Sequence record: MT446421.1
Reading direction: 5' to 3' (one strand)
DNA from: Escherichia virus TH55
Length of the DNA: 64,000 nt
This document shows positions 10,098 to 23,137 of the stretch, piece after piece. Below the pieces are notes generated by a model. That model was not told the origin of the DNA and ran no database searches. It worked only from the letters and a program-made list of their open reading frames with translations. The translations under genes and the position numbers were made by a program. Position 1 is the stretch's first letter; the number at the start of each line of letters is the position of its first letter.

Positions 10098-10367
10098 TCA
10101 TTTCTTAGAGTATTGACCCATAAGTTTAGCGATATCACCCAATTTCTGATTAAACAAATAATCCACTTCTTTGCCAGATTTATCTACAATTTGCCACTGA
10201 CCATTTCCTTTGTTGCCAAAGGTCCAATCACCGACTTTAAATGAAGTTCCATTAACTTTTTTAATAGAAGTAAACTCAAAGCCTTCTTTCTTAGCTAAAA
10301 ATGCCATGCGGCTTTCATCTGATTCATTTAATACAGATTCAGCCAAAAATTCTTGATACGTTTTCAT
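10098..10367 (-). CDS. internal-protein-like protein with capsid targeting sequence
   Basis: starts MKTYQEFLAE; 89 aa. Confidence 0.55.
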   Translation of the reverse strand: MKTYQEFLAESVLNESDESRMAFLAKKEGFEFTSIKKVNGTSFKVGDWTFGNKGNGQWQIVDKSGKEVDYLFNQKLGDIAKLMGQYSKK

Positions 10368-10375
10368 ATTTTACC

Positions 10376-10893: not shown

Positions 10894-11352
10894 TTATCCG
10901 AAAATTTGAGTCATTACCTTGTACATCGATTTGCCCATCACATACTGCCATTGACTCGGTTTAATCAGAGCAAATGCATCGAACTCTGGAACCGAACTAC
11001 CATCCGGGAAGGTATGATAGGCAGAGCATTTACTATGTCTAAACTGCTCATGCTCAACCGGAACCGTGTACAAAAACAGGTGAAGATTTTTGTTATCTGA
11101 ATAACGGAACTCACCCAGGTCCTTTAAGAATGCCGGGTCGTATTGGGTAAACCCGGTTTCTTCTTCGGTTTCACGGATAGCCGCTTCAATCGGGGATTCA
11201 CCAGCTTCAACATGGCCCTTAGGGATGTCCCATTTATGTGCAGGCATACCTGGTTTACGAGAACAAGTCACACGACCCATGAATAACTCTTTATCTTCAG
11301 TCATGAAAATAATGCCAGCAGATAATTCTTTCACCTTGTTTTTCTTACTCAT
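10894..11352 (-). CDS. nudE: Nudix hydrolase
   Basis: Nudix box GHVEAGESPIEAAIRETEEETG; position after e as in T4; start at MSKKNK. Confidence 0.8.
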   Translation of the reverse strand: MSKKNKVKELSAGIIFMTEDKELFMGRVTCSRKPGMPAHKWDIPKGHVEAGESPIEAAIRETEEETGFTQYDPAFLKDLGEFRYSDNKNLHLFLYTVPVEHEQFRHSKCSAYHTFPDGSSVPEFDAFALIKPSQWQYVMGKSMYKVMTQIFG

Positions 11353-11581
11353 CGTCACGTTTCCATGATTGGTTAAAAATATCACTCATTAAAAATTCAA
11401 GTCTATTTTCCAATGAAGGGCTTTCACTACTAGAAACTTGAACCATGTAGTCGGAAATAGGTCGGAACATATCCAAGTCAGTTTCTAAATCATCTTTGAT
11501 TTTCTCTTCTGATGTACCTGTATCATAGGAATACAGATAAGAATCACATGACTCTGATTTAATATAAATTGCAATACTCAT
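11345..11581 (-). CDS. hypothetical acidic protein
   Basis: 78-aa ORF. Confidence 0.4.
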   Translation of the reverse strand: MSIAIYIKSESCDSYLYSYDTGTSEEKIKDDLETDLDMFRPISDYMVQVSSSESPSLENRLEFLMSDIFNQSWKRDDE

Positions 11582-12165
11582 TTACGGCATTCCTCAATAA
11601 AGGAGTTCAATGTATTTTTCTTAGTGATATCGTCATATACCTTTTTAACTTTAGAAATACGAAAAGGTACTTCAATAACCATAGTCCATAAAAATGATGC
11701 AATAAGTCCAGCAAGAGCAGTAGAAAAGCACGCACCCATTACAGCTACGGGTGCTTCATTTTTGCCTGTCAAGAAAAACCACAGGAATGGTAAAAATAAG
11801 ATTCCAGCCCAGGCATAAAACCTGGAACAAATTAACTTATCAAATTCATCACTCCAGGTACGAAATCCATATTTCTTGCTATAAGAAATTAATGGGTCGG
11901 GTGTCTGTTCTTTGAGTGGTTCTGGTTGATACCCATTAATGATATATCCCATTTTATATTCCTTAATTAAAAGCTCTTTCACATGACGATTGCATCGCGA
12001 CCAATCAACATTTTCCACCTTGATTCCTTCATCACCATCATCAAGGTTCGCCCAATATTTTTTGGTAATCATAAATTCATCTCTTGATACAATTATACCT
12101 GCATTTTCCGACCGACGGATGAAGTTTACATCAACACCCATACAACCCGGCTCATAAAGGGCCAT
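11578..12165 (-). CDS. hypothetical membrane protein with C-terminal FIEECRK tail
   Basis: 195 aa; soluble N-domain, two hydrophobic helices, basic tail ending NSFIEECRK. Confidence 0.45.
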   Translation of the reverse strand: MALYEPGCMGVDVNFIRRSENAGIIVSRDEFMITKKYWANLDDGDEGIKVENVDWSRCNRHVKELLIKEYKMGYIINGYQPEPLKEQTPDPLISYSKKYGFRTWSDEFDKLICSRFYAWAGILFLPFLWFFLTGKNEAPVAVMGACFSTALAGLIASFLWTMVIEVPFRISKVKKVYDDITKKNTLNSFIEECRK

Positions 12166-12851
12166 TACCAGCCCTCCATAGGGAATTCCAGATATACTTG
12201 AGCATTAACGCGGATTTCATTTGTAATCTTTTTAACACGGTCGGTATTACGAGACACACGACCAAACCAGCGCCAACCGTTACTTACTGCGCGAGAACCT
12301 GTATGCCATGTCTGCCAATCAAACTGGAGCAACGTGCGGTCAGGAGCATCCCACTTGGCTAATTCATTGGACTCAATTTTTTCCAGAACTTCTTTATGCC
12401 ACTGACGATAGATAAGTTCGCCTTCAGGAATCTGACTAAATTGTGCAGTTCCGGTTGCAAAATAAGTAGGACACACATCAGCGTTAACAAGACCAAGAAT
12501 ATGTTCAGAATGGTAACGAGGATTATCATAATCAGGTTGCCCTGCAGTAATAAAGTGTTGACCAACCGGAATATCCGGGCGTGGTACATCGTCATGGTGA
12601 TAACCTGGGATAGCAGGATACCAACCAGGCATCAGCATATGAACCCGAGAATCAAATACAACCTGGTCGGTGTTCCAATCATCCGGCAGACTCATAATAA
12701 AGCTACGAGTAATAGGACCGCCATTGTCAAAAGCGAAAGCCAATGAGCTGTTGAAGAACATAGTTTCGTTTTTGATTTTATCATTAGAAATTTTACCAGC
12801 GAAACTGCCTACTGCATGAGCTTGAGAATTAAAAGTTTTTGGACCGTTCAT
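12165..12851 (-). CDS. hypothetical protein
   Basis: 228-aa ORF preceded by promoter/hairpin cassette. Confidence 0.45.
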   Translation of the reverse strand: MNGPKTFNSQAHAVGSFAGKISNDKIKNETMFFNSSLAFAFDNGGPITRSFIMSLPDDWNTDQVVFDSRVHMLMPGWYPAIPGYHHDDVPRPDIPVGQHFITAGQPDYDNPRYHSEHILGLVNADVCPTYFATGTAQFSQIPEGELIYRQWHKEVLEKIESNELAKWDAPDRTLLQFDWQTWHTGSRAVSNGWRWFGRVSRNTDRVKKITNEIRVNAQVYLEFPMEGW

Positions 12852-12905
12852 AATATTTTCCTCATTGATTGTGGGACCATTGTGTCATAGTCCCACTTGG
12901 ATGTA
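12852..12905 (-). promoter_or_regulatory. early promoter/hairpin cassette (family 1)
   Basis: inverted repeat gtgggac/gtcccac then caatcaatgaggaaa before ATG; GTGTAC upstream. Confidence 0.4.
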
Positions 12906-12910
12906 CACAC

Positions 12911-13891
12911 TTATTTTTCGAAAGGACGAATTAAATGTTGGTTAGCCTTGAAACGTTTAACATAGTCTTCGTGACCCAGGGTGTTGTACATATTAACCAC
13001 TTCCTGGTAATGTTCCCAGGCATACTCGCGGAACCATCCAGAAGTAATGGAGGTGCAGACTTTTTCCAGCGCAATATGGAAGCTCACGGATGGAGAGATA
13101 TTGAACTCATTGGGAACCTGCGAACGCTCCAGAGCGAGTACACATGCTTCTTCATAAACCCCTGCCAGTTTAATAATCTCAGGGAGTGCTTCAAATTTTT
13201 CACGCGAGGTCATAACTTCTGAATCATCTTTCATATAGAACTTATATGCAGGCTTATCAGCAAGCGCCACGGCCTCGTGGATGGAGTCATGGTCAAGGGT
13301 ATAGATTGTATCATTAAAGAAAGTTTTCTTGCCCACGTCTAGTTTAGGGTGACTATATGACAATGTTTCTGCCTGGCGCTGCAGCATGATTTTATGCAGT
13401 TCGTCATTAAGAACAACCCCCTTATTGCGAAGGTAATTAATATGACTCATGGTCTTCAGGAAGAATGGATTGTTCTTCAGGTAACGATGAGACAATTTAA
13501 TTGCCAGACAAATATCAGGAGTCGCCCAGTAAAAACCAGATAGACGGTCTTTCTGAATATTTGCCTTCGCATATTTGAGTAAACGATAACTGGAGGTAAA
13601 ATCTTCCTCTTGTAGCTCATCAGTCAGCTCACGAACACTTGTCAATGCGCGGACGATGTACGCTTCAAAATAGGTTTCTTTACCATTGTGCATACATTTA
13701 AAAGCTTGAACATCTGGGTTATCCACATGCACATGTTGTCCCATCATCTGGGTTTTAAAGCTATTCCAGGAGCCCTGGTCAGCGATAAAGTCCCAATCAG
13801 AGTTTTCAATTTTCTGACTTTCAATCAGACCAGCGTTATGTAATGCACGAGAACCAATAACTAACATCATAATATTTTCCTCAAATAACAC
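12911..13891 (-). CDS. hypothetical protein (326 aa)
   Basis: long ORF; N-terminal VIGSRAL...SDWDF loosely NTase-like, unconfirmed. Confidence 0.45.
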   Translation of the reverse strand: MLFEENIMMLVIGSRALHNAGLIESQKIENSDWDFIADQGSWNSFKTQMMGQHVHVDNPDVQAFKCMHNGKETYFEAYIVRALTSVRELTDELQEEDFTSSYRLLKYAKANIQKDRLSGFYWATPDICLAIKLSHRYLKNNPFFLKTMSHINYLRNKGVVLNDELHKIMLQRQAETLSYSHPKLDVGKKTFFNDTIYTLDHDSIHEAVALADKPAYKFYMKDDSEVMTSREKFEALPEIIKLAGVYEEACVLALERSQVPNEFNISPSVSFHIALEKVCTSITSGWFREYAWEHYQEVVNMYNTLGHEDYVKRFKANQHLIRPFEK

Positions 13892-14122
13892 TTAAATTTC
13901 AGCAGCAGAGATATTAGATTCATCTATCATCTCAGAGGCGGACCCCTTAACGATAGGAACCAATTTGCCATAGAGGTCTTCATTATAAGGGTCGTTGATA
14001 CAGTGTGCATCTTCAAAACGAACACCGTAATCAGACTTCTTATAAACGAGACCGTAAATCTTTGTAAACTTAGCACGACTAATTTTTACAGGCTCATCAG
14101 TCATTGGGGCGTAATACCACAT
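13892..14122 (-). CDS. hypothetical protein
   Basis: 76-aa ORF behind promoter/hairpin cassette. Confidence 0.4.
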   Translation of the reverse strand: MWYYAPMTDEPVKISRAKFTKIYGLVYKKSDYGVRFEDAHCINDPYNEDLYGKLVPIVKGSASEMIDESNISAAEI

Positions 14123-14180
14123 AATGTTTTCCTCATTAGTTGACGAAATAATGATACTACATTTCTTTAGGCTTGTACAC
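14123..14180 (-). promoter_or_regulatory. early promoter/hairpin cassette (family 1)
   Basis: coding strand GTGTAC...gaaat gtag TATCAT t atttc gtcaactaatgaggaaa ATG. Confidence 0.45.
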
Positions 14181-14225
14181 TAAATTTCTGCACATAAGTC
14201 CTCCTATCACATCCTTGTGATTAAA

Positions 14226-14453
14226 TTATTTTCCTAACGAAATACGAGTAGGTTTTTTACCGAAATATTCTTCATAGGAACCATCTAAACGACCTGCTTT
14301 AGACCGACAGTATGAATCATACTTTTTGTAATAAGTCAACTCTGTATTGTAACGTGGATGTCTATCAGCCATAATAATACTTAACGGCCAGCCTTTAGCA
14401 TAATCGATAAGACCATTTATTTTACGAATATATCTTTTCTTTAATTTTAGCAT
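14226..14453 (-). CDS. hypothetical basic protein
   Basis: 75-aa ORF. Confidence 0.35.
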   Translation of the reverse strand: MLKLKKRYIRKINGLIDYAKGWPLSIIMADRHPRYNTELTYYKKYDSYCRSKAGRLDGSYEEYFGKKPTRISLGK

Positions 14454-14680
14454 GAGCTTGGGTACCAGATTTTACCATCGGCACGAGCAACGAAGGTGCG
14501 ACCAGCTTCTTCACCATAACAAGAGCTGTTCAACCAGTCTTCAAGACGGACTTCGCCGTCATAATCATCAAGCTCGACACCGAAATCTTGAGCAGAAGCC
14601 ATATCTTTTACTTTCTTATACAGCGCGGCCAGTTCAAGGGCAGCTTTTTCTAATTCAGCATGTTCAACAGCAGTAGTCAT
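14447..14680 (-). CDS. small protein, paralog family with C-terminal W-x-SS-C tail (member 1)
   Basis: 77 aa; N-terminal helix, ends WYPSSC; internal WLNSSC. Confidence 0.45.
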   Translation of the reverse strand: MTTAVEHAELEKAALELAALYKKVKDMASAQDFGVELDDYDGEVRLEDWLNSSCYGEEAGRTFVARADGKIWYPSSC

Positions 14681-14689
14681 TTTATCACC

Positions 14690-14920
14690 TTAGCAAGTCA
14701 TAGAGGAGTTAAACCAGAAACCCTGGCCATCATTGATGCCGTAATCACTGCGAATCCAGTCATATTCTTCATATTCTTCGCTAGAAGCCGGAATATAACG
14801 TTGGAAACGGTCTGCGGCGTGTAAATTAAAAATTTCACCGGTTTTATCGGCTAACTGCTCACCTTCACAGATTAGTGCACGGATTTGGTCTTCAATTTCT
14901 TTAACAGTTTTAGTAGTCAT
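14690..14920 (-). CDS. small protein, paralog family (member 2)
   Basis: 76 aa; ends FWFNSSMTC. Confidence 0.5.
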   Translation of the reverse strand: MTTKTVKEIEDQIRALICEGEQLADKTGEIFNLHAADRFQRYIPASSEEYEEYDWIRSDYGINDGQGFWFNSSMTC

Positions 14921-14929
14921 TTTATAACC

Positions 14930-15127
14930 TTAGCATTCATAAGAGGAGGACACCCAAGAGGTACCGCTAATAGTAATACAACCATTATAAAGCGTAATAT
15001 GTTGTTCCAGATTACGCTGACCGTCAATATAGATATCAGCTTCTTCGCGTTCTTCTTTGCAAATCTGGATAACGTTTTCAATAGCTGCCGCGGCAGTACG
15101 GATTGCACAATCTAATTCACGAGACAT
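14930..15127 (-). CDS. small protein, paralog family (member 3)
   Basis: about 65 aa from MSRELD; ends SWVSSSYEC. Confidence 0.5.
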   Translation of the reverse strand: MSRELDCAIRTAAAAIENVIQICKEEREEADIYIDGQRNLEQHITLYNGCITISGTSWVSSSYEC

Positions 15128-15135
15128 ATAATTCC

Positions 15136-15417
15136 TTAACATTCAGAAGAGGAGGACACCCAACCGCCATTTTCTAGGTCGGTTGTGTAGTCATGAGTAT
15201 TAACAATAGCCCATTCAGGATGACCATCTTCTTCCCAATGAGCAAGGTCAGCTTTCAAGGCGCCAGGAGAATAATAGTCACCGCCCATACCGCGAGCAGG
15301 GTATATATTAAAATGAGTCTCATATTTGTCTGCAATTTCCTCAGCACGGCGAATGGCTTCATGGATTTCTTTTACTGCGGCCAGAAGCTCTGGTTGGTTA
15401 TGGTTATCATTCATCAT
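15136..15417 (-). CDS. small protein, paralog family (member 4)
   Basis: 93 aa from MMNDNH; ends GGWVSSSSEC; longer ORF-track start is a spurious extension through member 5. Confidence 0.5.
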   Translation of the reverse strand: MMNDNHNQPELLAAVKEIHEAIRRAEEIADKYETHFNIYPARGMGGDYYSPGALKADLAHWEEDGHPEWAIVNTHDYTTDLENGGWVSSSSEC

Positions 15418-15418
15418 A

Positions 15419-15709
15419 TTAGCACATCTCAGAAGAGGAAACCCAGGCACCAACAGTAACAACGCCGTTTTCAACTCGCCCGCCGTTGTTTTCAATATGG
15501 TGAGCGAACCATTCGGAACATTCATAACCAACTGGATGATATGTACGGCCGGTGCCGTAATCACCAGTGCTGAATTCGATACCATATTCATCTGCGATTT
15601 CTTCACAGTGTTTTTCAATTTCAGAGGTCTTATTTAGAAGAGAATAGATGGCTTTTTCTGCAGATTTCTCATCATAATACTTGGGGATAGCAATTTCAAT
15701 TTTATTCAT
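15419..15709 (-). CDS. small protein, paralog family (member 5)
   Basis: 96 aa; ends GAWVSSSEMC. Confidence 0.5.
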   Translation of the reverse strand: MNKIEIAIPKYYDEKSAEKAIYSLLNKTSEIEKHCEEIADEYGIEFSTGDYGTGRTYHPVGYECSEWFAHHIENNGGRVENGVVTVGAWVSSSEMC

Positions 15710-16152
15710 GATTTACATTCCTTAATAAAGGTTTCAAGGTCATTACGTTTTGTTTTGTCTAGGAACTTATTATACTCAGCCATTGCCAAAGCGTATCTCT
15801 TTCGGCTGGGAGCATTCACGGCATTTGTGTGACAGATATCATACACAACCGGGATAAAATAAGCCACAACAGCCGGAGCAATTATCATAAAGAAGCCCAT
15901 CTCAATAGGCATGACTCCCTCGATTGCAGCCATAACCGTGGTCATTACCAGACCAACCAAACCACCAAGCATGGCAGTGACAATCCCCAATAATAAATTG
16001 CCGCCAATATCATATTCAGCCAATTGATAAACATGTGATGCAAGACTAGGCCGTTCCATTACGAACCTCCTTAATAAATTCTTCGGCACATTTAATTTTG
16101 TGCTCTTCTTGTAGGGAAACACATTTTTGTTCCCACTCTTTAACTCGTCCAC
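15706..16152 (-). CDS. hypothetical membrane protein with C-terminal FIKECKS tail
   Basis: 148 aa; two hydrophobic helices; start may be internal Met near 16059. Confidence 0.45.
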   Translation of the reverse strand: MDELKSGNKNVFPYKKSTKLNVPKNLLRRFVMERPSLASHVYQLAEYDIGGNLLLGIVTAMLGGLVGLVMTTVMAAIEGVMPIEMGFFMIIAPAVVAYFIPVVYDICHTNAVNAPSRKRYALAMAEYNKFLDKTKRNDLETFIKECKS

Positions 16153-16441
16153 GGTATCCTTTATTCATATGATTTTGATGCCACACATTTATCAAAATCA
16201 TACTCAGGACTGTAATAAAAGGAGCTGCGATTATTAGCGCCCAGGCAACTCCAACACTAATGATACTCATATCCCCACAAAGCACCATCATTATAACCCC
16301 AACGATGCATATGGACAGGGCCCCAAATGCTGGCATAAGGTCTTTATCAATTTTGTCTGCGTATACAAATTTTTCTGGTTTACTTGGCAGATATAACGTT
16401 CGCATTTTGAACCCCTTTAGCATATTCACGACATTCAGCAA
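16046..16441 (-). CDS. hypothetical membrane protein
   Basis: 131 aa; two hydrophobic helices; tail EEFIKEVRNG; overlaps both neighbours in other frames, start uncertain. Confidence 0.4.
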   Translation of the reverse strand: MLNVVNMLKGFKMRTLYLPSKPEKFVYADKIDKDLMPAFGALSICIVGVIMMVLCGDMSIISVGVAWALIIAAPFITVLSMILINVWHQNHMNKGYRGRVKEWEQKCVSLQEEHKIKCAEEFIKEVRNGTA

Positions 16442-16952
16442 TAAAACGATTAAGCTTACGTTTCCGTTTACGACCCTCTAATGTATACTCAGCCGCCAAA
16501 TCAAGAAGCTCATCTTTATCATAATTTTTAATATCAGTATAAGTTGGGCGGCGGTCAACCATTCCAAAGTGGTCACCATTTTCCAACATCAAATAACACA
16601 CCAAATGGTCATCATCGTCCGCATTAATAAGCTGCTTATAATCACTTGGTTCATTTAACGCATACACAGAATAACTCAGCCCAGCGAATTCCACTCGTTG
16701 AATACCCAGATTTACGTCAATAATTTCCAAGGCATCTGCAAAAGAAAGGTCTTCAGCTAAAGCAAAAATAAAAGGCAATTTGGTAGTATCGCCGCGACTT
16801 GTTGTTCTTCTTAAGAAATCATTGGAATAGCCCAAGTCGCGGCGGATTCTATAAAGAACTGTGTTAGTTTCAGTGGCAAGACCACTACCGCCAAACCATT
16901 CCACATTTGATAAAAGATTATCATATAAAGTCATAATTTTCTCCTCTCCCAA
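16380..16952 (-). CDS. hypothetical protein with KRKRK...FIAECRE tail
   Basis: 190 aa soluble ORF; C-terminus overlaps next gene. Confidence 0.45.
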   Translation of the reverse strand: MGEEKIMTLYDNLLSNVEWFGGSGLATETNTVLYRIRRDLGYSNDFLRRTTSRGDTTKLPFIFALAEDLSFADALEIIDVNLGIQRVEFAGLSYSVYALNEPSDYKQLINADDDDHLVCYLMLENGDHFGMVDRRPTYTDIKNYDKDELLDLAAEYTLEGRKRKRKLNRFIAECREYAKGVQNANVISAK

Positions 16953-16976
16953 TTAGGGGGCTTTGCCCCCTTTATC

Positions 16977-17570
16977 TTACTTAAGTGAATTGATGTATTC
17001 TTCAATGTCAGCGGACGTGGTATCCACACCAACCTGTGGACCTTTGAAGGTTTCAACACGCATCAAGGTGTCTTCAATATCAATCTTAGTCAATGCAGCG
17101 ATTTCAACAACATCATCTGCAGTCGCAATACCCAGGGCAGATACCTTACGGGTTTCGCGGATGTATTCCAGTTTAACAGCTAGTTCCTGACGAGAATCAT
17201 CCAGCTCTTTAACTTTCAATTTAATTTCATTACGCATTTCAACATAATCGTCTGCCTTCTTACGAAGTTGTTTAGCAGTGCGACGATACAGGAGACCCAG
17301 TTTAGCATGGACCTGGACATCAGCACCATCAGCAATCAGTTTGCGGATTTCACGCTCTTTTGAGGCGGCGAGTTGGTCTTTTTCATTCGCTAACTCGCGG
17401 ATGCGTTTTTCTTCATTAACAGACTTAACGTGGGCGGTCTGGAGCTCAGTAATCTTGTCAATCAGGGTAGACGCCGCTTGAGTATATTGGTCTTCAATAG
17501 ACAGGTTTTTTGCCATTGCAGTACCCAGTTTGGAGCGGATGAATTCAACAAGTTTCTTTAAAGTATTCAT
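16977..17570 (-). CDS. coiled-coil protein (possibly PspA/IM30-like)
   Basis: 197 aa, long charged heptad-like helical segments. Confidence 0.4.
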
Positions 17571-21195: not shown

Positions 21196-21678
21196 TTAAA
21201 GCATATCAAGCGCTTTAACAGATGGGATTTGGATTTCTTCTTCGATTATATATAGCTTAACATAAGAAATTACACGCATGAAATCACCATCATTTTCACA
21301 AGCCATGCCTAAAAGTTCGGTCAGGGCTTCATTCAGGTAGTATTCTTCATCATCGCCATTTAGCAATGCATCTAAATCTTCTACACCCAGAACCTTACTT
21401 AAAAATTCATGGGTTAACTGACCAGATTTTACACCAGATGCAATGTAGTCGATAACCAAGTGTTTAACCACATCCCATTCTGAATTACCACATTTGTTGC
21501 GGTTATTGCAATGCGAACCATAGAAAAGTTCCAGGATATATTTGTACTGTTGTATTTCTTGTTCTTCTACACCAAATACAGTCTGGGTTTTATAATTATC
21601 ACCATCATTTTCCCAGGTTTCAATTTCAATCACATAACCTTTAGGGATGGTCTGACCAAATTTGATATTCATTCGCAT
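21196..21678 (-). CDS. hypothetical protein
   Basis: 160-aa ORF. Confidence 0.4.
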   Translation of the reverse strand: MRMNIKFGQTIPKGYVIEIETWENDGDNYKTQTVFGVEEQEIQQYKYILELFYGSHCNNRNKCGNSEWDVVKHLVIDYIASGVKSGQLTHEFLSKVLGVEDLDALLNGDDEEYYLNEALTELLGMACENDGDFMRVISYVKLYIIEEEIQIPSVKALDML

Positions 21679-22058
21679 GTTCCTTCATCAACAATAGTAT
21701 GCGTATTGGCATTAACAATCTGCCACCAGTCAAAACGGTTGGAACCATAACAAGGCTTCTTCTCGTTTTCTTTAATGATATCACGCAGTTCATCTTCAGT
21801 CGCAGCTTTTGCAATTAAGTCAGCATAACCGCCACGAGGATAATAGCTATCACCAGCAAAGAGCAAAAAGTTTGTTTTGATATTCTTGAATTCTTCAAGA
21901 GTAATAACTGTTCCACCCGGTTGAACAATATCCACATAACTATACCCTAATTCCTGGGCTTTATCTACTGCTTCAAGCAGGGTGTCATACGCCCACCCAA
22001 TTTGGCAATCTGATTTTTCAGATGGATTTGCCTGATAATCCGCATACACTTTATACAT
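21669..22058 (-). CDS. hypothetical protein
   Basis: about 129 aa from MYKVYADY; ORF-track N-terminus overlaps upstream gene. Confidence 0.4.
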   Translation of the reverse strand: MYKVYADYQANPSEKSDCQIGWAYDTLLEAVDKAQELGYSYVDIVQPGGTVITLEEFKNIKTNFLLFAGDSYYPRGGYADLIAKAATEDELRDIIKENEKKPCYGSNRFDWWQIVNANTHTIVDEGTCE

Positions 22059-22059
22059 T

Positions 22060-22245
22060 TTACTCACCTTTGGAGATTTTATCCATAACGAAAGAGATTG
22101 AACCAATTAAAAATGCAACTACTAAAGAGATTATATTCTCAGAAGTTGAAAGCATATTCAACATAAAGCCAGCAAACATGCTAAAACCAAAAACGGTAAC
22201 AGCAACAAGGGCAGTAACATTTCTAATTAATTCACAACGTTTCAT
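22060..22245 (-). CDS. small hydrophobic membrane protein
   Basis: 61 aa, two hydrophobic helices, behind family-1 cassette. Confidence 0.4.
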   Translation of the reverse strand: MKRCELIRNVTALVAVTVFGFSMFAGFMLNMLSTSENIISLVVAFLIGSISFVMDKISKGE

Positions 22246-22300
22246 TTTATTCTCCTCAGTAGTTGATGGGATAATTATACGCTATCCCATTCAAAAGTAC
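22246..22300 (-). promoter_or_regulatory. early promoter/hairpin cassette (family 1)
   Basis: coding strand gtgtac...gggata gcg TATAAT tatccc atcaactactgaggagaataaa ATG. Confidence 0.5.
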
Positions 22301-22302
22301 AC

Positions 22303-22557
22303 TTATTTTTTAGGGATACGATAGTAACGCATCTCAACATCTTTCTGCTTGTGCCACTTTTTGATAAGGTCTTCAGAACCTTTAATAGTAACGATGTCAT
22401 AGCGACCATCATGCGATACTTCAGCACTTAACTGCATGAAGTTGTCTAGTGAACGGCGCAATTCCTCATTAGAAAAACTACCACGCGGGGAACCAACATA
22501 AGCAAACTCAACTTTTGCATCTGCGGCTTCGTTAATAAATTCTTGATAAGTTTTCAT
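22303..22557 (-). CDS. internal-protein-like protein with capsid targeting sequence
   Basis: starts MKTYQEFINE; 84 aa. Confidence 0.55.
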   Translation of the reverse strand: MKTYQEFINEAADAKVEFAYVGSPRGSFSNEELRRSLDNFMQLSAEVSHDGRYDIVTIKGSEDLIKKWHKQKDVEMRYYRIPKK

Positions 22558-22612
22558 GTTGTCTCCAGTAGTTGATGAGATAATTATACTGCAGTTATCC
22601 CATCGCGTATAC
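22558..22612 (-). promoter_or_regulatory. early promoter/hairpin cassette (family 1)
   Basis: coding strand ...cagTATAATtatctcatcaactactggagacaac ATG. Confidence 0.45.
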
Positions 22613-22613
22613 T

Positions 22614-22856
22614 TTATTTTAAGTCTTCCAGACGTTTTTTCATCTTGGTGCCATTCTTAGCAATCTCGCCGGCATCAGAACAAAGAGCAAGGAGAGCTTT
22701 AACTTTACCCTGGTCGCCTTTAAAAGATGATGCATCTACTGAATCAGCAAGTTCTTTGATACGTGCAAACAGGCGCTCTGCTTCAGCAAGGGCTTGACCA
22801 AGTTTAACTTCCATACCATGGGAAGATTCTGTTATAAATGTTTGATAAGTTTTCAT
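22614..22856 (-). CDS. internal-protein-like protein with capsid targeting sequence
   Basis: starts MKTYQTFITE; 80 aa. Confidence 0.55.
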   Translation of the reverse strand: MKTYQTFITESSHGMEVKLGQALAEAERLFARIKELADSVDASSFKGDQGKVKALLALCSDAGEIAKNGTKMKKRLEDLK

Positions 22857-22864
22857 TTGAAATC

Positions 22865-23137
22865 CTATTTTAGATAAATTGCATATTTTTTATAACCAGC
22901 CGTCTCATGGCGAAGACCCTTGTCATTGGCAAAACGCTCAATGTTATTAATTTGGTTCTGGTCAAGTTCTGAAATGTCAAACGCAAAAAAGTTGCGTTTG
23001 TTACCAATTGTTATATGGTCAGTTAAGTCAATGCTATACAGGTGATTGATATTGTCAATCATAGCTTTGACTGCTTTACTAATTTTTACTTCTTCATTCA
23101 GTTGTGACTCGTTGAAAAATTCATTGAAAGTTTTCAT
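22865..23137 (-). CDS. internal-protein-like protein with capsid targeting sequence
   Basis: starts MKTFNEFFNE; 90 aa. Confidence 0.5.
   Translation of the reverse strand: MKTFNEFFNESQLNEEVKISKAVKAMIDNINHLYSIDLTDHITIGNKRNFFAFDISELDQNQINNIERFANDKGLRHETAGYKKYAIYLK

Follow-up and report, generated by a model that had tools for sequence, protein, structure and literature searches.

Four genes in a 64,000-nucleotide (nt) stretch of Escherichia virus TH55 (MT446421.1; the window) encode proteins that share a short basic C-terminal tail, F-[IV]-x-x-C-[RK], and on the combined evidence of annotation, profiles and synteny these genes are orthologues of the uncharacterised T4 early genes e.2, e.3, e.4 and e.5 (Table 1). 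With moderate confidence, we propose that the tail forms an amphipathic helix at the C-terminus, portable and cytoplasmic, serving as a common docking or assembly element of diversifying early accessory proteins; the helix, its docking function and the existence of a common partner are all features that we infer. Positions 15400–17000 match Escherichia phage UPEC07 (MW250787; Gaprivervirus, Tevenvirinae, T4-like) at 100% identity and SP18, RZ, VR25 and others at 90–96%, and all genes of the block lie on the minus strand.

An earlier note on the window had singled out four open reading frames (ORFs) with related basic tails, which it described as FIxEC, and had remarked on paired hydrophobic helices in three of them. 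The four ORFs and the tails quoted for them are present on the minus strand, and the similarity of the tails is real and far beyond chance. In six-frame ORFs of at least 40 amino acids (aa) from the 170-kb UPEC07 genome (110,441 aa), there are five matches to the strict pattern F[IV]..C[RK]; three of these are e.2, e.3 and e.5, and the other two fall in antisense junk ORFs. A 24-column hidden Markov model (HMM) of the tail gives the four genes 16.7–21.3 bits, the best of all other UPEC07 ORFs scoring 6.9, and a model built from phages whose e.6 is no more than 66% identical ranks the four genes first, second, third and fifth among 1143 ORFs. Hydropathy also bears out the arrangement of paired hydrophobic helices followed by a basic tail in three of the proteins (11578..12165, 15706.. 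and 16046..).

The same tail recurs near C-termini in related phages. Across 34 e.6-anchored IMG/VR loci, the strict pattern is found 106 times on the coding strand, in every case within 20 residues of the C-terminus and never internally (0 occurrences), and 5 times on the opposite strand, and the tail HMM at a threshold of at least 10 bits yields 156 matches on the coding strand and 0 on the other. The T4 proteins carry FVKECREYVK.. (e.5), FVKESRCKSQS (e.4), FVIDCRKIK (e.3) and FITECRKLK (e.2b). At least 15 BLAST-distinct families bear the tail, both membrane proteins with two hydrophobic helices (e.2, e.3, e.4 and about seven more families) and soluble proteins (e.5, 154–273 aa, and families of about 95, 102, 109 and 113 aa). 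Some membrane families also have in common the approximately 40–55 residues that follow the second helix (hhalign probability of 95.6% over 53 columns for e.3 and e.4, 94% for e.3 and a 120-aa family, and 92% for e.4 and a 121-aa family), whereas alignment of soluble with membrane family profiles is limited to 10–23 columns of the tail.

Conservation within single families is concentrated on the motif. Across 12 diverse e.5 sequences, which are 13–23% identical to that of UPEC07, only M1, N94, F164, C168 and R169 are invariant, with L34 and Y88 as the sole additions in a 21-sequence alignment; among 37 sequences of the e.2 family, the motif Cys and Arg are the only columns conserved at 100%. 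The Cys is likewise 100% conserved in e.2, e.5 and the 95-aa soluble family. An exhaustive HMMER search of 1.84 billion representatives with a membrane-family profile (e.2/e.3/e.4) returned only seven proteins. Six of them are phage proteins of these families, two being close relatives of the query, and each of the six carries the motif at its end (FIKECKS, FIREVRNAKTR, FIDDCKNWR and others). The remaining match (P0055, 464 aa, E=2e-4), a coiled-coil protein of repetitive sequence that lacks a terminal motif, is probably spurious. At the level of sequence comparison, the membrane family is therefore not traceable beyond T4-like phages.

The gene order around the tail is similarly stable. Phages of Klebsiella, Aeromonas, Stenotrophomonas, Citrobacter and Morganella are among the 1110 phage records with an e.6 gene, and in all complete Tevenvirinae loci sampled a tail-bearing e.5 starts 6–58 nt after e.6 (two of these e.5 ORFs being truncated), with 3–6 tail-bearing genes preceding nudE in each. 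In Morganella phage Rgz1, the e.6 of which is 32% identical, six genes after e.6 bear the tail (YIKHCRGE, YIKQCRGKK, FVDKCRGKK, FVDECRRRL, FVDECRRRQNEN and YVKHCRGK). The gene after e.6 ends in LFVDYCRRTASKK in Aeromonas phage 31, and in Citrobacter phage IME-CF2 it has KFIHSCKK 27 residues from its end. The entire genome of Mosigvirus WFL6982 (MK373774) lacks e.6, e.5 and e.2, yet e.4 and e.3 are retained with intact tails (18.3 and 21.0 bits, respectively); the place expected for e.5 and e.6 is taken by tRNA genes together with two small ORFs of doubtful status.

The composition of the motif was derived from 109 unique tails, collected by a regular expression that fixes positions 0, +1, +4 and +5, so that the frequencies at those four positions are conditional on it, position −3 being unconstrained. 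Position −3 is L, I, F, V or A in 87% of the tails, position 0 is F (95%) or W (5%), position +1 is I (79%) or V (19%), position +4 is C (80%) or otherwise V, I, M or S, and position +5 is R (90%) or K (10%). The two middle positions are free, and the residues after the motif are mostly basic unless the protein ends there. The E of FIxEC is present in only 41% of the tails and is not conserved outside close relatives, and V, S, I or M replaces the Cys in e.4-type families. The shared basic tail described in the earlier note stands, with its motif corrected here from FIxEC to F-[IV]-x-x-C-[RK]. The conserved residues use all of their synonymous codons (TTT 51 and TTC 24 for F; TGC 35 and TGT 40 for C; CGT 23, AGA 18, AGG 15, CGC 7 and CGA 7 for R), selection thus acting on the peptide rather than on the DNA.

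The spacing of the conserved positions −3, 0, +1 and +4 (i, i+3, i+4, i+7) corresponds to one face of an α-helix. The hydrophobic moment of the tails peaks at 110–120 degrees (0.48) and has a value of 0.40 at 100 degrees, where shuffled tails give 0.31 ± 0.15, and an AlphaFold2 (AF2) model of e.5 calculated from the 21-sequence alignment shows residues 153–183 as helical, at low confidence. The predicted transmembrane helices of e.2 lie at about residues 116–134 and 140–158 by hydropathy. The C-terminal segments of e.2, e.3 and e.4 contain 8–9 K and R residues (9 in e.3), their inter-helix loops are short or acidic, and the tails follow the second transmembrane helix by roughly 25–35 residues. 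Taken with the presence of the same tail on soluble proteins, the positive-inside rule would place the tails of the membrane proteins on the cytoplasmic side.

In the mechanism that we propose, the module would comprise a hydrophobic residue, two free positions, F-[I/V]-x-x-C-[R/K] and then basic residues. It would form a C-terminal helix on soluble families such as e.5 and would lie on the cytoplasmic side of membrane proteins, and in both settings it would bring changeable early accessory proteins, membrane-anchored as well as soluble, to one binding site on a host or phage protein. The N-terminal parts would meanwhile diversify through duplication and module exchange in a hyperplastic region.

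Several observations weigh against this proposal. The hydrophobic moment exceeds that of shuffled sequences by only about one standard deviation, and the AF2 model of e.5 is poor (predicted local distance difference test, pLDDT, 40) and unusable for a fold search, the helix thus resting on periodicity. That the Cys is almost absolutely conserved in most families points to chemistry (metal binding, covalent modification or a disulfide) rather than simple burial, and a plain docking model leaves this conservation unexplained. Docking on a common partner is putative. The obvious candidate, e.6, had been brought forward as an obligate partner by its universal synteny, a role weakened by WFL6982, where the e.3 and e.4 tails persist; since that phage does without e.6, e.6 is not obligatory, and it is best regarded as a possible lead, not a proven partner. 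More tentatively, F-I/V-x-x-C-R may be an address label that recruits early effectors to a hub on the cytoplasmic face of the inner membrane, either a host protein or a PspA-like e.6, with Cys-Arg chemistry taking place there; if so, that chemistry could be metal bridging or covalent modification.

Tail-to-tail assembly is a somewhat unlikely alternative, in which the tails would form a homo- or hetero-oligomeric helical bundle, possibly with the Cys residues bridged by a metal or by disulfides, and e.2–e.5 would constitute one membrane-associated complex. Stoichiometric co-assembly is favoured by the 3–6 adjacent, probably translationally coupled tail genes of most genomes, by the fully conserved Cys of e.2, e.5 and the 95-aa soluble family, and by the retention of the e.3 and e.4 pair in WFL6982 after the loss of e.6, e.5 and e.2. 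However, the 8 kb following e.6 contain only a single tail-like gene in Aeromonas phage 31 and in Citrobacter IME-CF2, so hetero-assembly is not universal; moreover, e.4-type families lack the Cys, and oligomerisation would be poorly served by one short helix bearing one Cys.

Plain shared ancestry is improbable. On this reading the genes would be tandem paralogues that retain the tail as the part that evolves most slowly, and local folding would be the only function that the tails have in common. It is in keeping with weak cross-family PHROG matches (e.3 to the e.2 family, E=0.002; e.4 to the e.3 family, E=0.005), with the profile similarity of e.3 to e.4 and to the 120-aa membrane family given above, and with the construction of every membrane family as two helices and a tail. 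Yet the soluble families, which have unrelated N-terminal domains, align over the tail columns only, the motif residues are nearly the sole invariant positions of the divergent e.5 proteins, and the motif persists in a phage as distant as Rgz1. Such constraint implies a function and argues against plain shared ancestry.

It is very unlikely that the nascent tail acts in cis from within the ribosome exit tunnel, influencing how translation terminates or re-initiates where the start of the next gene overlaps. Conservation at the peptide level would agree with such a role, as would the location of the motif 0–15 residues from the stop codon, hence in the tunnel at termination, and its ending about 1–25 nt before the ATG of the next gene. 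But both distances vary, whereas known arrest peptides act at a fixed distance; tight gene packing is by itself enough to bring the next start close, and the T4 proteins accumulate as stable products.

The earlier note had also reported overlaps of 60–107 nt between the ORFs, for which it considered translational coupling, misplaced starts or programmed frameshifting. The overlaps of that length are a product of longest-ORF calling from GTG and TTG starts, and misplaced starts account for most of it: each longest ORF contains an internal ATG preceded by a Shine-Dalgarno sequence, namely GGAGAGGAG-N7-ATG at 16934 for e.5, AAAGGGG-N6-ATG at 16405 for e.4 and AAGGAGG-N6-ATG at 16059 for e.3. These three starts agree with the annotations of SP18 and RZ; for e.4, an alternative in-frame ATG at 16423 is the choice made in the UPEC07 GenBank record and matches the T4 start position. 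Orthologue N-termini are consistent (MRTLYLPSK, MSNLYLPSE and MSKPSLYLPSK for e.4; MERPSL, MHKPSK and MQKPKL for e.3). The longest-ORF length of e.3 varies from 123 to 175 aa in relatives, whereas its length from the ATG start holds steady at 117 aa in UPEC07 and its Gaprivervirus and Dhakavirus relatives and at 112–120 aa over the entire e.3 cluster. The supported starts shorten the overlaps; the similarity of the tails is highly significant. The residual overlaps of 4–26 nt, which have a Shine-Dalgarno sequence within the upstream gene, fit translational coupling; like e.3, e.2 overlaps its next gene by 4 nt (ATGA). As read from the sequence, the remaining overlaps are ordinary T4-style packing that permits coupling, not frameshifting.

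Programmed frameshifting in the long overlaps, together with a superinfection-exclusion role like that of Imm or Sp, can be given little credence. The longest ORFs do overlap by 60–107 nt, and the proteins are small, early and inner-membrane like Imm. However, no slippery heptamer is present in the overlaps, RNA structure at the junctions is no better than in shuffled sequences (z −0.65 to +0.85), and a separate Shine-Dalgarno sequence and ATG serve every gene, its orthologues likewise being individual genes with their own starts in all phages examined. Searches of PHROGs and Pfam matched these proteins to none of the annotated superinfection-exclusion families, imm is annotated elsewhere in the UPEC07 genome, and e.5 is soluble.

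Transcription signals are consistent with a densely packed, co-transcribed and translationally coupled e.2–e.5 block. Scans of e.5-e.4-e.3 gave no convincing internal promoter or terminator, and a scan of the block for late and middle promoters found no TATAAATA and no MotA box with a −10 element; apart from isolated MotA-box matches, the one signal seen is an early-like promoter at about 18549. In T4, early RNA is reported for all of e.2–e.6 and all five proteins are detected, e.4 and e.5 in the early class, e.2 and e.6 in the middle class and e.3 in the late class (PMC9697503, supplementary files 4 and 6). The early RNA of T4 fits the window, given the early-like promoter upstream and the failure to find a late one. 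The hairpin between e.6 and e.5 (Table 1) lacks a T-run on the coding strand and so may act in RNA processing or stability instead of as a terminator.

The free positions of the motif carry information of another kind. In e.2, e.3 and e.4 of the window their codons read GAGGAA, AAGGAA and AAGGAG, which are the Shine-Dalgarno sequences of the next genes: the K-E-V codons of e.4 (AAG GAG GTT) provide the AAGGAGG found 6 nt before the ATG at 16059, the K-E codons of e.3 serve the gene that follows it, and the GAGGAA of e.2 precedes the next ATG. Across loci, the share of contexts with a Shine-Dalgarno-like tetramer in the I-x-x-C codons depends on the distance from the motif to the next ATG, being 51 of 66 for an ATG within 4 nt, 5 of 44 at 5–12 nt and 1 of 32 beyond 12 nt. 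The E of FIxEC is therefore largely a by-product of Shine-Dalgarno coding for the next gene, and dual coding at the free positions accounts for the K/E-E preference of this clade; the locus is a clear example of dual coding, in which unconstrained motif positions carry the ribosome-binding site of the next gene. This coding and its dependence on the nearness of the next ATG could be taken for a nucleotide-level signal (a shared ribosome-binding region for the downstream gene, or a short homology promoting module shuffling), but that explanation has the least to recommend it. It is largely refuted by the synonymous codon variation at F, I/V, C and R, where Arg is encoded by both CGN and AGR codons. 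It also accounts for the variable positions only, a distant next start leaves the conservation of the motif undiminished, and RNA structure at the junctions is not significant.

The assignment of the four genes combines the annotations of UPEC07, SP18, RZ and T4T with PHROG profiles, tblastn, Pfam, hhalign and synteny. The UPEC07-type and T4-type e.5 proteins appear unrelated by BLAST, and hhalign gives a probability of 96% over 173 columns. For e.4, which lies between e.5 and e.3, Pfam PF26873 (Phage_T4_Y06O) is precomputed for the UPEC07 protein and tblastn matches T4T e.4. For e.3, which lies between e.4 and the downstream genes, the PHROG 2330 match spans residues 1–117 and tblastn leads to 342 records including the T4 e.3 locus. 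Pfam and NCBIfam library scans of the four proteins gave nothing meaningful. The T4 ORFs e.2–e.5 (UniProt Y06M–Y06P) have the same gene order, e.6, e.5, e.4, e.3, ..., e.2, nudE, e; unlike in T4, about 3.5 kb of other small genes separates e.3 from e.2 in UPEC07, and a single 78-aa gene is all that stands between e.2 and nudE. T4T differs from UPEC07 in having e.2 annotated as two pieces, e.2a and e.2b (L004 5722..6209). The FITECRKLK tail survives there on the 36-aa e.2b, and other Tequatroviruses (L020–L022) have an intact 162-aa e.2; e.2 of laboratory T4 may be a pseudogene.

Table 1. Positions in the window of the tail-bearing genes, their motifs and junctions, and neighbouring features
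Feature	Coordinates	Strand	Description and basis
e.5 orthologue	16380..16934	-	soluble, 184 aa, long predicted C-terminal helix carrying the motif; PHROG 8788 E=8e-111; ATG 16934
e.5 tail motif	16428..16445	-	F164-I-A-E-C168-R169 (RFIAECREYAKG...), 15 residues from C-terminus; e.5 alignments
e.4 orthologue	16046..16405	-	membrane protein, 119 aa (125 aa from alternative start 16423); PHROG 2604 E=4.1e-43
e.4 tail motif	16061..16078	-	Cys-less F110-I-K-E-V-R115; tail HMM 16.8 bits
e.3 orthologue	15706..16059	-	117 aa, two transmembrane helices and basic, probably cytoplasmic tail; PHROG 2330 E=6.8e-46
e.3 tail motif	15712..15729	-	F111-I-K-E-C-K116, one residue from C-terminus; pattern and tail HMM
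e.2 orthologue	11578..12165	-	195 aa, N-terminal soluble region, two transmembrane helices, tail; PHROG 2203 E=4.9e-66; Pfam PF26896 Phage_T4_Y06M
e.2 tail motif	11584..11601	-	F189-I-E-E-C-R194, one residue from C-terminus; pattern and tail HMM
e.6	16977..17570	-	conserved 197-aa protein, helical hairpin predicted by AF2; adjoins e.5 upstream; possible partner
e.5/e.4 overlap	16380..16405	-	26 nt (44 nt with e.4 start 16423); Shine-Dalgarno/ATG reading, SP18 and RZ annotation
e.4/e.3 overlap	16046..16059	-	14 nt; Shine-Dalgarno/ATG reading, annotations
Overlap of e.3 with next gene (15419..15709)	15706..15709	-	4 nt, ATGA stop/start; sequence
Hairpin between e.6 stop and e.5 Shine-Dalgarno	16955..16971	-	perfect GGGGGC-AAA-GCCCCC; sequence; no coding-strand T-run
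Five W-[VFY]-x-S-S-x-x-C genes	15419..15709, 15136..15417, 14930..15142, 14690..14920, 14447..14680	-	C-terminal motif

The interval between e.3 and e.2 has features of its own. Five tandem small genes at 14447..15709 on the minus strand end in W-[VFY]-x-S-S-x-x-C, with the Cys as the last residue (WVSSSEMC, WVSSSSEC, WVSSSYEC, WFNSSMTC and WYPSSC); they match PHROG 899/4882, of unknown function, and are present in 2–6 copies in relatives. They represent a second C-terminal motif family in the same hyperplastic interval, unrelated to F[IV]xxC[RK]. Also located there, at 12911..13870 on the minus strand, is the gene of a conserved 319-aa protein with Pfam DUF7277 (E=2e-27) and DUF7275 (E=1e-75), followed by that of a conserved 228-aa protein (PHROG 1843), and both are present in most related loci. 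In MW250787, the product names within 11345..17570 are clearly wrong for several small early ORFs: e.2 is called 'portal vertex protein', 76–77-aa ORFs 'major capsid protein', 15136..15591 'tail completion protein' and e.6 'host specificity protein'.

T4 is the best-studied virulent phage, and e.2–e.6 are without an assigned function despite their early expression and wide spread. A limited search of the searchable literature gave no description of the shared tail, the databases file the genes as separate uncharacterised families, a full-text literature search found no functional study of the genes or the motif, and the text of the CRISPRi-ART preprint does not mention these genes. By linking four T4 genes and at least 15 families, one short peptide turns anonymous ORFs into one testable system; the tail peptide is usable as bait, with point mutations of F, C and R as clean negative controls, and the tail profile recognises members that ordinary homology searches miss.

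Three known systems invite comparison. The predicted long antiparallel helical hairpin of e.6, beginning in an amphipathic N-terminus (in the Morganella homologue, MGIF..), recalls PspA with PspB/PspC, and the succession of e.6 by small membrane proteins with putative cytoplasmic C-terminal helices recalls the docking of PspA on PspC. However, UPEC07 e.6 has no Pfam match to PspA_IM30 (PF04012), for which the best match, in the IME-CF2 homologue only, reaches 16 bits against a cut-off of 33.9; hhalign of e.6 with PspA gives a probability of 9%, and WFL6982 differs in keeping tailed genes without e.6. The working analogy for how the tail might act is provided by C-terminal hub-docking peptides, such as the conserved C-terminal peptide of FtsZ, the C-terminal tip of SSB and the clamp-binding tails of T4 gp43, gp33 and gp55, which are likewise short, conserved, partly hydrophobic and located at or near the C-terminus of differing proteins. 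The tail differs from these in its sequence pattern, F-I/V-x-x-C-R followed by basic residues, and any hub for it is hypothetical.

The third comparison is with the capsid targeting sequence of the T4 internal proteins (IPs), which is cleaved by the prohead protease. Three small IP-like genes in the window, at about 21300..22900 and about 10100..10370 (L001 12904..13457 and 699..968), start with MKTYQTFITE, MKTYQEFINE and MKTYQEFLAE, and T4T IPII and IPIII start with MKTYQEFIAE, a superficial likeness to the xFIxE part of the tail. The capsid targeting sequence (MKTYQEFIAE) is N-terminal and lacks the C-R pair, whereas the F[IV]xxC[RK] tail is C-terminal, does not conserve the E and occurs on inner-membrane proteins that cannot be packaged. 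Its C-terminal place, the unconserved E and the membrane-bound proteins rule out identity of the tail with either the capsid targeting sequence or a prohead-protease site (I-x-E). Nevertheless, both are short conserved peptides on hypervariable proteins of the same neighbourhood, the capsid targeting sequence containing F-I-x-E, and both are conceptually the same 'address label on variable cargo'. Were the address-label reading of F-I/V-x-x-C-R to hold, the tail would be the early-gene counterpart of the capsid targeting sequence carried by the hypervariable internal proteins.

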